A model generated the notes under the pieces. That model did not search any database, was not told the origin of the DNA, and saw nothing but the letters and a program-made list of their open reading frames with translations. Positions 331-2,009 of a DNA stretch of 2,009 bases are shown here, one piece after another. Each line of letters opens with the position of its first letter. The first letter of the stretch is position 1. The DNA comes from Escherichia coli (lineage in GTDB: Bacteria; Pseudomonadota; Gammaproteobacteria; Enterobacterales; Enterobacteriaceae): NCBI RefSeq assembly GCF_003334355.1, contig NZ_QOWP01000078.1; one strand, written 5' to 3'. A program made the translations under genes and the position numbers.

Positions 331-444
331 ATGAACAGCATACTGATAATCACATCTCTCCTTATCATATTCAGCATTTTTAGTCATGCCCTAATAAAAT
401 TAGGGATTGGCATATCCAATAACCCAGACAAAACCGATGTATAA
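331..444 (+). CDS. Candidate small ORF, 37 aa, hydrophobic N-terminus (possible small membrane peptide or upstream leader peptide); could be a chance ORF in AT-rich DNA
   Basis: ATG 331 preceded by GAGG (323-326) at a 4-nt spacing; translation [37 protein letters not shown], stop TAA at 442-444. Residues 4-18 form a signal-peptide- or transmembrane-like hydrophobic stretch. Below the size cutoff of the supplied ORF track. AT-rich DNA yields Ile/Leu/Phe-rich frames by chance, hence the low confidence. Confidence 0.2.
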
Positions 445-512: not shown

Positions 513-746
513 ATGAAATCAAAAGACACCCTAAAGTGGTTCCCTGCGCAGCTTCCTGAAGTAAGAATTATCCTAGGGAATGCTGTAGTGGAAGTAGCAA
601 AACAGGGAAGACCTATCAATACCAGAACATTGCTTGATTACATTGAAGGAAACATAAAGAAAAAATCATGGCTGGATAACAAAGAATTATTACAAACAGC
701 GATATCAGTTCTTAAAGACAACCAAAATTTAAATGGTAAAATGTAA
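513..746 (+). CDS. ydfK: Small 77-aa prophage-borne protein of unknown function, YdfK/YnaE-like (cold-shock-associated small protein of cryptic prophages Qin/Rac, recalled from memory). The ORF track starts at ATG 480 (88 aa), but ATG 513 is the more likely start.
   Basis: Open frame 480-746 with in-frame ATG at 513 preceded by AAGGA (500-504) at an 8-nt spacing; ATG 480 has no recognisable Shine-Dalgarno. From 513 the product is exactly 77 aa (MKSKDTLKWFPAQLPEVRIILGNAVVEVAK...). Position directly upstream of a Pin-like recombinase matches the ydfK-pinQ / ynaE-pinR arrangement as I remember it. No recognisable catalytic or DNA-binding motif. Confidence 0.6.
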   Translation: MKSKDTLKWFPAQLPEVRIILGNAVVEVAKQGRPINTRTLLDYIEGNIKKKSWLDNKELLQTAISVLKDNQNLNGKM

Positions 747-925: not shown

Positions 926-1062
926 GGTCTCACCAAAATTACGGGGTTGCATACGCATTCGTTTATTTTCGAACGTGTACATACAAATATGCACAAAAAT
1001 AATCAAAATTATTTTCTGCGATGCATTATGATATGAACACCAATTTCGTATAGAGTCTCACT

Positions 1063-1653
1063 ATGTCTCGAATTTTTGCTTACTGTCGGATATCAACGCT
1101 GGATCAGACCACCGAAAATCAACGCCGGGAAATCGAAAGTGCAGGTTTTAAAATCAAACCTCAGCAAATAATCGAAGAACACATTAGCGGCTCAGCAGCA
1201 ACCAGTGAGCGTCCTGGTTTTAACCGGTTGCTTGCTCGCCTGAAATGTGGTGATCAATTGATTGTGACAAAACTGGATCGCCTTGGTTGTAATGCAATGG
1301 ATATCAGGAAAACAGTGGAACAACTGACCGAAACAGGTATCAGAGTGCATTGCTTAGCATTGGCTGGCATTGACCTGACCAGTCCAACAGGAAAAATGAT
1401 GATGCAAGTAATTTCAGCAGTCGCTGAATTTGAACGAGACCTTTTACTTGAACGCACTCATTCCGGGATAGTAAGAGCCCGCGGCGCAGGGAAACGTTTT
1501 GGTCGACCACCTGTGTTAAATGAAGAACAGAAACAGGTGGTATTCGAACGAATTAAGTCAGGTGTAAGTATAAGTGCCATTGCCCGGGAATTCAAAACCT
1601 CGCGGCAAACCATTTTAAGAGCCAAAGCAAAACTTCAGACACCTGACATATAA
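1063..1653 (+). CDS. pinQ: Small serine recombinase, resolvase/invertase family (Pin-like putative DNA invertase of a lambdoid prophage), 196 aa
   Basis: N-terminal catalytic motif Y7-x-R9-x-S11-T-x-D14-Q15 ([11 protein letters not shown]) with the nucleophilic serine at S11; KLDRLG motif at 70-75; E-R pairs in [12 protein letters not shown]; Gly/Arg-rich hinge [10 protein letters not shown]; C-terminal helix-turn-helix [26 protein letters not shown]. Length 196 aa matches PinQ/PinR as recalled. Symbol is tentative, since pinQ and pinR are near-identical paralogs. Confidence 0.85.
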
Positions 1654-1659
1654 AAAATA

Positions 1660-1674
1660 ATCTCGGTGTGAGAT
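1660..1674. terminator. Weak palindromic hairpin (ATCTC-GGTGT-GAGAT) between the convergent recombinase and tfa 3' ends; possible weak bidirectional terminator
   Basis: 5-bp stem with 5-nt loop at 1660-1674; on the minus strand it is followed by the T-tract complementary to 1651-1659. The stem is short and GC-poor, so termination efficiency is doubtful. Confidence 0.2.
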
Positions 1675-1750
1675 GCTTTACGTCTTCCAAGCCCCCTTCC
1701 TTGCCGTAAATGGAAAGATACATCTAATTAAAGAATTTATATGTTTTACC

Positions 1751-2009
1751 CTACGGCAGTGCTGGCCATTCAATATCCTGTGCAGTTGACGTATCAACAC
1801 GGTTCAGCAATACCCGATACTTTTTCCATGCTTCCAGCAACGAGATTTCTTCCTCCGTTGCAATTTCCAGATCTGCAGCATCCTGAAGCGGCGCAATATG
1901 CTCACTGGCTACCTGCATCAGGTTGTTTTTTGTTTCTTCCGCCTCCCGGATCCGGAACAGTTTTTCTGCTTCCGTATCCTTCACCCAGGCTGTGCCGTTC
2001 CACTTCTGA
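1751..2009 (-). CDS. tfaQ: Tail fibre assembly protein (Tfa), C-terminal portion only; gene continues beyond the right edge of the window
   Basis: Minus-strand frame is open from the window edge (2008) to the stop at 1753-1751; the ORF track's GTG at 1984 is an internal codon, not the true start. The C-terminus ...[27 protein letters not shown] is the characteristic Tfa/gpU-type C-terminal signature of lambdoid, Mu and P2 tail fibre assembly proteins. Convergent with the recombinase as in Qin/Rac. Symbol is tentative (tfaQ/tfaR paralogs). Confidence 0.75.

Follow-up and report, generated by a model that had tools for sequence, protein, structure and literature searches.

The Din inversion systems, which include Pin of e14, Gin of phage Mu, Cin of phage P1 and Hin of Salmonella, have a small serine recombinase gene beside tail-fibre genes, together with 26-bp crossover dyads, an inverted fibre-gene duplicate and a Fis-dependent enhancer within the 5′ part of the recombinase gene. 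Hin, Gin, Cin and PinE are roughly 60–70% identical to one another. In e14, the pix site (TTCTCCCAAACCAACGTTTATGAAAA) is located 55–80 bp upstream of pinE, with stfE/tfaE beyond it, and its inverted partner lies inside stfP; the fibre genes are upstream of the recombinase gene and diverge from it. A 2025 paper reported that PinQ acts in trans to invert the P segment of e14; its database searches detected inversions in e14 alone and none in Rac or Qin (PMC12529663).

Phage lambda provides a second comparison. Its late genes end with tfa, which converges on the leftward accessory gene ea47 across a gap of 128 bp, and a 13-bp hairpin of −18.3 kcal/mol (z −5.1) lies directly after tfa. In lambda biology, Q-modified polymerase is expected to ignore intrinsic terminators, and antisense control occurs elsewhere in lambdoid phages.

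Convergent transcripts can also end in other ways. According to a preprint (bioRxiv 10.1101/2022.10.23.513370), transcription of convergent genes in E. coli often ends without classical signals, and at the bidirectional terminators of Ju et al. (2019), as related there, termination is driven by polymerase collisions. Prophage DNA is a main target for silencing by Rho, and its terminators include some of the strongest Rho-dependent ones (PMC9160355).

Here we compare with these systems a convergent recombinase–tfa junction in a 2,009-nt stretch of Escherichia coli DNA (NCBI RefSeq assembly GCF_003334355.1, contig NZ_QOWP01000078.1), which is called the window throughout.

Results

Organization of the pin–tfa locus

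From the ORF list and from matches across all complete E. coli genomes, the window was identified as the right end of a lambdoid prophage of the Rac/Qin type. The DNA is AT-rich, with a GC content of 0.29–0.46 over most of the window. The genes, the promoter and the intergenic spacer are arranged as follows.

331–444, plus strand: ynaM/ynfT (ORF list, E. coli genome search)
513–746, plus strand: ydfK/ynaE (ORF list, E. coli genome search)
976–1003, plus strand: pin promoter TGTACA-16-AATAAT (consensus scan; same hexamers in PMC3946193)
1063–1653, plus strand: pinR/pinQ-type small serine recombinase gene (pin), 196 aa, stop codon TAA at 1651–1653 (ORF list, RefSeq annotation)
1654–1750, no strand assigned: convergent intergenic spacer, 97 bp (ORF coordinates; RefSeq Qin and Rac)
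1751–2009, minus strand: 3′ part of tfaR/tfaQ (tail fibre assembly protein; tfa), stop codon at 1751–1753, the gene running off the window (ORF list, RefSeq)

The pin and tfa genes converge tail to tail. The original prediction had placed a 97-bp gap between a convergent recombinase gene and tfa at exactly these coordinates, and both the ORF list and RefSeq bore this out. The RefSeq annotation of Qin and Rac in K-12 has the same genes and the same 97-bp gap; the K-12 pinQ–tfaQ (Qin) and pinR–tfaR (Rac) junctions are the same locus in the same orientation, the difference being that the window comes from another strain. Ungapped identity of the window was 99.4% to K-12 Qin and 99.3% to K-12 Rac. 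The two K-12 copies are identical to each other over window positions 1539–2009, and their spacers differ from that of the window at one base, 1731. Strain 165 showed 99.9% identity over the whole window, and the element there adjoins uspF/ompN, which is the Rac site. E. coli 1303 showed 100% identity over the junction stretch 1600–1800. This stretch was found nearly full-length in 2,673 of the 5,426 complete E. coli genomes, in every case with a recombinase gene on one side and a tail-fibre assembly gene on the other. This prophage junction is very common in E. coli and already fully annotated.

The intact phages 2H10, PhiR34_1 and mEp460_ev081 showed the same arrangement in the interval from the side tail-fibre genes to the integrase end. 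In 2H10 and PhiR34_1, ynaE–pin converges on tfa–stf. The 2H10 map has a Q-like antiterminator gene followed by a continuous rightward block of lysis, head and tail genes, the last of which is tfa; pin, a ynaE-like gene and dinI are oriented opposite to this late block. The cryptic prophages Rac and Qin have only a truncated late operon, and their annotation over the stretch that we examined shows no late promoter. Only one more distant Pin relative was present in the phage collection, a PinR-like gene of an Erwinia phage (61% identity), located between terminase and portal genes. This unrelated context indicates that the pairing of pin with tfa is not obligatory and is lineage-specific.

Terminator signals in the spacer

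Folding, a consensus scan and base composition gave the following candidate signals in and near the spacer.

1650–1659, minus strand: tract rich in U (UAUUUUUUAU in RNA of the tfa strand), adjoining the hairpin below on its 3′ side and overlapping the pin stop codon (sequence)
1660–1674, minus strand: hairpin ATCTC-GGTGT-GAGAT, with a 5-bp stem (2 G–C pairs) and a 5-nt loop (folding)
1687–1705, plus strand: tract CCAAGCCCCCTTCCTTGCC, rich in C and poor in G, where Rho might load on untranslated RNA reading through from pin (composition)
1702–1759, no strand assigned: 7-bp inverted repeat TGCCGTA (1702–1708)/TACGGCA (1753–1759), across the tfa stop codon (folding)
1911–1933, plus strand: terminator-like hairpin and T-run (ACCTGCATCAGGT TGTTTTTTGT), antisense to tfa (consensus scan)

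The spacer has no strong intrinsic terminator in either direction. The consensus scan for intrinsic terminators gave no match in the spacer, with the 1660–1674 hairpin falling below the scan threshold, and the 1640–1765 segment folded no better than shuffled sequence on either strand (z −1.2 and −1.0). The 1660–1674 hairpin had an energy of −3.3 kcal/mol alone and −3.9 kcal/mol in context. An intrinsic terminator typically has a G+C-rich stem of at least 5–7 bp with an energy well below about −7 kcal/mol, and the best stem in the spacer is not of this kind. Efficient intrinsic terminators are typically far more stable than −3.3 kcal/mol. The consensus scan, the folds and the stem energy agree with the original prediction that the gap lacks a strong intrinsic terminator. 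That prediction had also named 1660–1674 as the only hairpin, and a weak one; its weakness was confirmed, but it is not the only one. On the plus strand, 1670–1686 folds at about −4 to −5 kcal/mol, giving a second weak hairpin in the spacer, and there is also the 1702–1759 inverted repeat, which had a fold z-score of −1.25 and is probably a chance match.

The 1660–1674 hairpin and the U tract are terminator-shaped in one orientation only, that of the tfa strand. On the minus (tfa) strand, the stem is directly followed by UAUUUUUU (1659→1652), in which seven of the eight nucleotides are U, and a U tract of the kind seen in intrinsic terminators is present on this strand only. On the plus strand, the tail after the stem is GCUUUACG; an A tract (AAAAAATAA) lies upstream of the hairpin, but no U tract lies downstream. 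The combination of A tract, hairpin and U tract that makes a bidirectional intrinsic terminator is thus absent at 1660–1674. A 31-nt piece containing the hairpin folded better than all 200 of its shuffles (z −5.8). At best, the hairpin and the U7 tract would form a weak, leaky terminator for the tfa strand.

The absence of a strong terminator is a negative feature to which no test of 'more than chance' applies, and lambda is a useful comparison. The lambda tfa homology covers window positions 1761–1950, where 1950 is the end of the query used. Since the homology stops at 1761, the lambda spacer and the window spacer are unrelated. The two loci have the terminal position of tfa and its convergence on an accessory gene in common, but the gap is 97 bp here and the best stem in it is that of −3.3 kcal/mol, in contrast to −18.3 kcal/mol for the lambda hairpin. 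Since a strong hairpin is retained at the corresponding position in lambda, its lack here is a real difference and not a general property of lambdoid phages.

Candidate routes of transcript termination

The TGTACA/AATAAT hexamers are listed for both pinR and pinQ as a constitutive promoter read by RpoD (PMC3946193), and a tiling-array study indicated that ydfK and pinQ are possibly co-transcribed (PMC6505713). We calculated the base composition of the RNA on both strands in 78-nt windows. Plus-strand RNA had a C/G ratio of 1.2–2.0 over 1620–2009, and its readthrough portion has the composition associated with Rho-dependent termination, namely an untranslated, C-rich and G-poor stretch of about 70–80 nt or more, ideally little structured. 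Minus-strand RNA is G-rich across the spacer, and C exceeds G within antisense pin, from about 1600 to 1260; this strand has a Rho-type composition only from about 1600 leftwards. Thus, tfa-strand RNA that passed the hairpin would overlap at least the 3′ end of pin. By this composition test, in which an excess of C over G is a weak predictor of Rho action, Rho-dependent termination is a plausible alternative end for both transcripts.

The hairpin and T-run at 1911–1933 were the sole match of the terminator scan in the window, compared with 1.4 matches expected by chance, and the hairpin had an energy of −6.1 kcal/mol (z −0.5). This element might possibly end pin readthrough, about 270 nt past the pin stop codon. 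Readthrough and antisense overlap across the gap are plausible, especially under Q-antiterminated late transcription. For each transcript, we infer the mode of ending from sequence features of this kind.

The Term-seq supplements of Adams 2021 have no entry for the 3′ ends of pinQ, tfaQ, pinR and tfaR, and the literature found by full-text search reports no antisense transcript at tfaQ or the junction. The near identity of the two K-12 copies leads standard analyses to leave out the pin and tfa genes (PMC5318159). The ydfK–pinQ and ynaE–uspF spacers were flagged as H-NS-associated by Shimada et al. (PMC3946193). The locus resembles the targets of Rho/NusG silencing of E. coli prophage and antisense RNA in its AT-rich acquired DNA, its H-NS-flagged spacers and its readthrough RNA with C in excess of G; the junction would belong to this class by composition only. 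With the bidirectional terminators of Ju et al. (2019), as described in the preprint (bioRxiv 10.1101/2022.10.23.513370), the locus shares a convergent gene pair, a short gap and the absence of a classical two-way terminator. According to the same source, collisions at those sites are positioned by a defined stem-loop, which is required there, whereas the pin–tfa spacer has no stable stem-loop, and pin and tfa differ from the genes at those sites in being poorly expressed prophage genes.

Conservation of the spacer

We scanned viral contigs with the Pin protein and obtained 25 loci, of which 20 had a full-length protein and 5 a partial one. Fifteen of the full-length proteins were about 99% identical and five were 84–85% identical, the latter forming what is called the 85% lineage below. 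The spacer was 97 nt long in all 32 loci that were fetched, in 8 sequence variants, and the 85% lineage keeps this length by means of two compensating 1-nt indels. Between the window and the 85% lineage, the spacer was 88.8% identical and pin 89.7% (83% at third codon positions), a comparison in which the available divergence is small, as there are two lineages only. The 3′ end of tfa was 93–95% identical in three of the four loci compared; the fourth (L027) diverges, with 66.5% identity. Judged by these values, the spacer evolves at about the same rate as pin.

In the 85% lineage, the 1660–1674 stem is kept and gains an A–U pair (6 bp), and the U tract is one U shorter. This hairpin is the sole spacer structure kept there. 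None of the 10 inter-lineage substitutions fell within the 20 nt of the hairpin and U tract, which was not significant (Fisher p = 0.11), and we rejected an excess of conservation for this element. One spacer variant carries C1664T, which weakens the hairpin. The 1702–1759 repeat was rejected as a conserved structure: in the 85% lineage, two of its seven pairs are broken and one becomes G–U, without compensating change. No compensatory changes or covariation were seen in the spacer between the window and the 85% lineage. The fixed 97-nt length and the kept hairpin and U tract could reflect mild constraint.

A blastn search of phage and plasmid collections found the spacer only at full length and only downstream of pin, so that an occurrence in another genomic context was rejected. 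PhiR63_1 has pin, the spacer and a 112-bp remnant of tfa beside a different fibre module, suggesting that the spacer travels with pin. Comparison with the covariance models of Rfam 15 gave no match above threshold in the spacer. Two sub-threshold matches were chance matches, SNORD108 (E 1.4), which overlaps 1703–1757, and mir-287 (E 9.9), which ends at 1649 outside the spacer; a known RNA family in the spacer was rejected on this basis. The window contains one real Rfam match, IS009, which lies inside tfa at 1785–1983.

Two small ORFs reach into the spacer, one of 38 aa at 1673–1789 on the plus strand and one of 43 aa at 1592–1723 on the minus strand. That the spacer encodes a small protein is suggested by their presence in the window, by the annotation of the 38-aa ORF as a hypothetical protein in phage Kati, and by a hypothetical protein listed over the spacer in Turner and HannyBb as well. 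These phage annotations are automatic gene calls, however, and both ORFs overlap real genes. In the 85% lineage, ATG at 1673 is replaced by ATT, and the start codon at 1723 (CAT on the plus strand) by CTT. With both start codons lost in that lineage, we rejected the ORFs as genes and consider a spacer-encoded protein extremely improbable.

The recombinase and the search for crossover sites

The recombinase of the window is 38% identical to PinE (183 aa) and does not have the close relationship to Hin, Gin, Cin and PinE that marks the Din family. Its best PDB matches were Gin invertase (E 3e-29) and gamma-delta resolvase (E 3e-22), with Gin only modestly better, and all of its NCBIfam matches were below the cut-offs.

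We scored the DNA with a half-site matrix made from pix (taken from e14) and from hix and gix half-sites. For a Din-type crossover site, the best score was 2.6 in the window and −3.2 in the spacer, compared with 26–31 for real sites and a mean of 5.4 for shuffled windows. Over the whole 2H10 genome, the best score was 12.0, from a single site that was not convincing. No inverted repeats were found around pin or the fibre genes in 2H10 and PhiR34_1, and a local invertible segment was rejected on this basis. In Din systems, a crossover site and the invertible segment directly precede the recombinase gene; the gene that precedes pin here is ydfK, and tfa is downstream and convergent. The two layouts are thus opposite, since the fibre genes of e14 are upstream of the recombinase gene and diverge from it. 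The 26-bp dyads of Din systems have no counterpart in the window, nor does their inverted fibre-gene duplicate in 2H10 and PhiR34_1.

The 38% identity to PinE, the absence of a Din-type site and the absence of local inverted repeats all indicate, on sequence criteria, that the pin–tfa locus is not a canonical inversion locus. The original prediction had seen no crossover-like dyad in the spacer, which the matrix scores support; it had nevertheless viewed the interval in the frame of a canonical inversion system, and this frame did not hold, given the divergent recombinase, the lack of inverted repeats and the position of the e14 site upstream of pinE.

The spacer adjoins a serine recombinase gene, and a 30-nt direct repeat (70% identity) links 872–901 with 1704–1733. 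Both facts could point to a hidden crossover site for Pin, or to the scar of a former invertible segment. As paired sites on either side of pin, however, these repeats were rejected; they do not stand out from the other chance pairs listed with them and are unlike Din sites. The spacer score of −3.2 at most, the canonical position of the site upstream of the recombinase gene, the lack of inverted repeats in 2H10 and PhiR34_1 and the published finding of inversions only in e14 (PMC12529663) also argue against a crossover site. This reading of the spacer is largely refuted, and we give it almost no probability.

Discussion

We think it probable that the spacer is a passive 3′-to-3′ junction of two independently transcribed units in a Rac/Qin-type lambdoid prophage, with an end of pin transcription that is probably of the Rho type. 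One unit would be the late tail-fibre operon stf–tfa on the minus strand. The other would be the accessory cassette ynaM–ydfK/ynaE–pin on the plus strand, transcribed from its own promoter at 976–1003 and adjoining the attachment end, in the region called 'b' in lambda. The spacer itself would be neither a recombination site nor a dedicated regulatory element. In a lysogen or a cryptic prophage, only pin would be appreciably transcribed, and its untranslated continuation, with C in excess of G, may be stopped by Rho or at the 1911–1933 hairpin and T-run. During lytic growth of intact relatives, the Q-modified polymerase finishing tfa would ignore the weak hairpin and run antisense into pin until Rho or a collision stopped it. 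The antisense overlap on pin would then be a by-product of the layout and not a selected control device. A dedicated regulatory role of the spacer is unsupported, because its conservation (88.8%) matches that of pin (89.7%) and no compensatory changes were seen.

The other readings of the junction differ from the passive junction in the function that they give to the spacer. The hairpin and U7 tract at 1660–1674 may be a working terminator of the tfa strand, unidirectional and moderately efficient, that defines the end of the late/stf–tfa transcript; on that side, the gap would then have a terminator after all. Its shape and orientation are right, with UAUUUUUU directly after the stem; its local fold beats all 200 shuffles of the 31-nt piece; and it alone is kept in the 85% lineage, with an additional A–U pair in the stem and none of the 10 substitutions inside it. 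A 5-bp stem with two G–C pairs at −3.3 kcal/mol is nevertheless far below typical efficient terminators and below the scan threshold, and it becomes weaker still in the natural variant C1664T. The conservation of the element does not reach significance (p = 0.11), and that of the U tract may be explained by the overlap of this tract with the pin stop codon and the A-rich gene end. We therefore regard a working terminator at this position as unlikely.

If the lack of a terminator were itself functional, as the original prediction proposed, convergent readthrough would lead to interference or to antisense RNA controlling the recombinase, for example by turning pin off when the late operon fires. 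The absence of a strong terminator in either direction and the invariant spacer length are consistent with such control, as is the layout of the intact phages, in which tfa ends a late operon that is driven by a Q-like antiterminator and aimed at pin. Lambda, with a different downstream neighbour gene, has a strong hairpin, and lambdoid phages use antisense control elsewhere. On the other side, the spacer is no more conserved than pin, it shows no covariation and no conserved structure beyond the 5-bp stem, and the literature found reports no antisense transcript. The truncated late operon of the cryptic Rac and Qin prophages, with no late promoter annotated in the stretch examined, means that the antisense mechanism could not operate where the locus is commonest, and the excess of C over G would let Rho limit the overlap. 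Functional interference between the two transcripts is a reasonable idea but, in our judgement, doubtful, more so than a tfa-strand terminator. A more elaborate version combines the hairpin, the U7 tract and the fixed 97-nt spacing into a deliberately leaky terminator, serving as a late-operon antisense off-switch for an orphan serine recombinase. A lysogen would express pin unopposed, and after induction the Q-modified polymerase would run antisense and shut the recombinase off in lytic growth. Both this design and its sequence of steps seem to us improbable, and we put them below functional interference as such. The reported activity of the recombinase that would be shut off is the inversion of the e14 P segment in trans (PMC12529663).

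As a passive junction, the pin–tfa spacer restates a routine property of a very common, annotated locus, and the finding in itself matters little. In bacteria, transcription of many convergent gene pairs ends through Rho or polymerase collisions, without classical terminators. For work on these prophages, the locus is not to be taken for a canonical invertible-segment system, and transcript mapping in K-12 must handle both the Rac and the Qin copy, given their identity over 1539–2009. If it were true that readthrough controls the recombinase, the junction would be a small added example of convergent-transcription control in lambdoid prophages, and it would bear on the recent claim that PinQ/PinR act as a phage-defence switch on e14.

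Terminator-like element and open reading frame around the pin-tfa junction

According to the original prediction, the convergent pin and tfa genes are separated by 97 bp (1654-1750, the spacer) holding no strong intrinsic terminator. Across the whole window, a sole terminator-like match was found:

1911-1933, + strand (the pin strand): terminator-like element, ACCTGCATCAGGT then TGTTTTTTGT, inside tfa and antisense to it

This element lies about 270 nt beyond the pin stop codon and is weak (-6.1 kcal/mol, z -0.5), with a count within chance expectation.

Base 1731 of the spacer is A in the window versus T in 32 of 32 spacers from the fetched loci, K-12 Rac and Qin included; E. coli 1303 showed 100% identity to the window over 1600-1800. 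The spacer is also crossed by a small ORF:

1673-1789, + strand: 38-aa ORF, crossing the spacer and overlapping the tfa stop codon

In the record of phage Kati this ORF bears a hypothetical-protein label; the records of phages Turner and HannyBb likewise place a hypothetical protein over the spacer. Because the ATG start codon of the window is ATT in the 85% lineage (loci whose Pin protein is 84-85% identical to that of the window), this annotation of 1673-1789 is probably spurious.

Apparent mosaic breakpoint and an Rfam match within tfa

Phage PhiR63_1 (L005 2141-2553) retains pin and the spacer together with 112 bp left over from the 3' end of tfa; the junction with the different fibre-assembly module next to them falls at window position 1862. 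Many lambda-like phages carry the 58-bp piece 1805-1862, at an identity of about 91%, in DNA that bears no annotation. This pattern looks like a recurrent mosaic breakpoint within tfa.

A strong match to the Rfam family IS009 (RF02111) was found at 1785-1983 on the - strand, with 220.9 bits versus a gathering score of 117. The match falls on the coding strand and is wholly contained in the coding sequence of tfa; this 'sRNA family' may be no more than conserved protein-coding DNA.

Candidate recombinase-binding palindrome upstream of pin

The ydfK-pin intergenic DNA (743-1062) showed 97% identity between two lineages whose pin genes were only 90% identical. It contains a perfect 14-bp palindrome, CAAAATCGATTTTG, at 912-925, which occurs once per locus in the loci where it was found. 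The equivalent sequence of phage 2H10, TAACCAAAAATCGATTTTTTGAAAAA, gave the top score for a Din-type site (the 26-bp crossover dyad) in the whole 46-kb 2H10 genome; this score was only 12.0, versus 26-31 for real sites. The palindrome, which occupies the canonical position upstream of the gene, could be bound by the recombinase as a vestigial or regulatory site, or else its occurrence could be due to chance.

Related recombinases

PinQ was reported to invert the P segment of e14, more strongly than the e14 recombinase PinE itself (PMC12529663). Yet PinQ shares only 38% identity with PinE, and a scan of the window with the Din-type matrix detected no site like pix (the e14 crossover site) at its own locus. 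The e14 stretches set against the window pin gene (1063-1653) were:

L007 (e14 locus) 3786-3806
L007 5604-5624

Cross-reactivity of PinQ with e14 at 38% identity is notable and worth independent confirmation.

In Erwinia phage LS-2018a, a PinR-like recombinase gene (L035 3001-3606; 61% identity) lies between terminase-like and portal-like ORFs, both labels being putative and read from the translated ORFs alone. It is followed by a pair of small overlapping ORFs of the same orientation, and no tail-fibre genes were found near it in this locus.

Rac and Qin copies in K-12

The Rac and Qin copies of K-12 are identical across 1539-2009, so short-read RNA-seq or Term-seq in this strain is unable to assign junction signals to either prophage; for this reason, pinR/pinQ and tfaR/tfaQ were left out by published pipelines (PMC5318159). 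The few sites that differ between the copies include 1365 and 1509 in pin, 144 bp apart. 'Silent SNPs' have been reported in pinR and in pinQ of T4-ghost-derived mutators, 144 bp apart within each gene (PMC12549603, Table 2). Instead of new mutations, these SNPs may reflect gene conversion or cross-mapping between the Rac and Qin copies.
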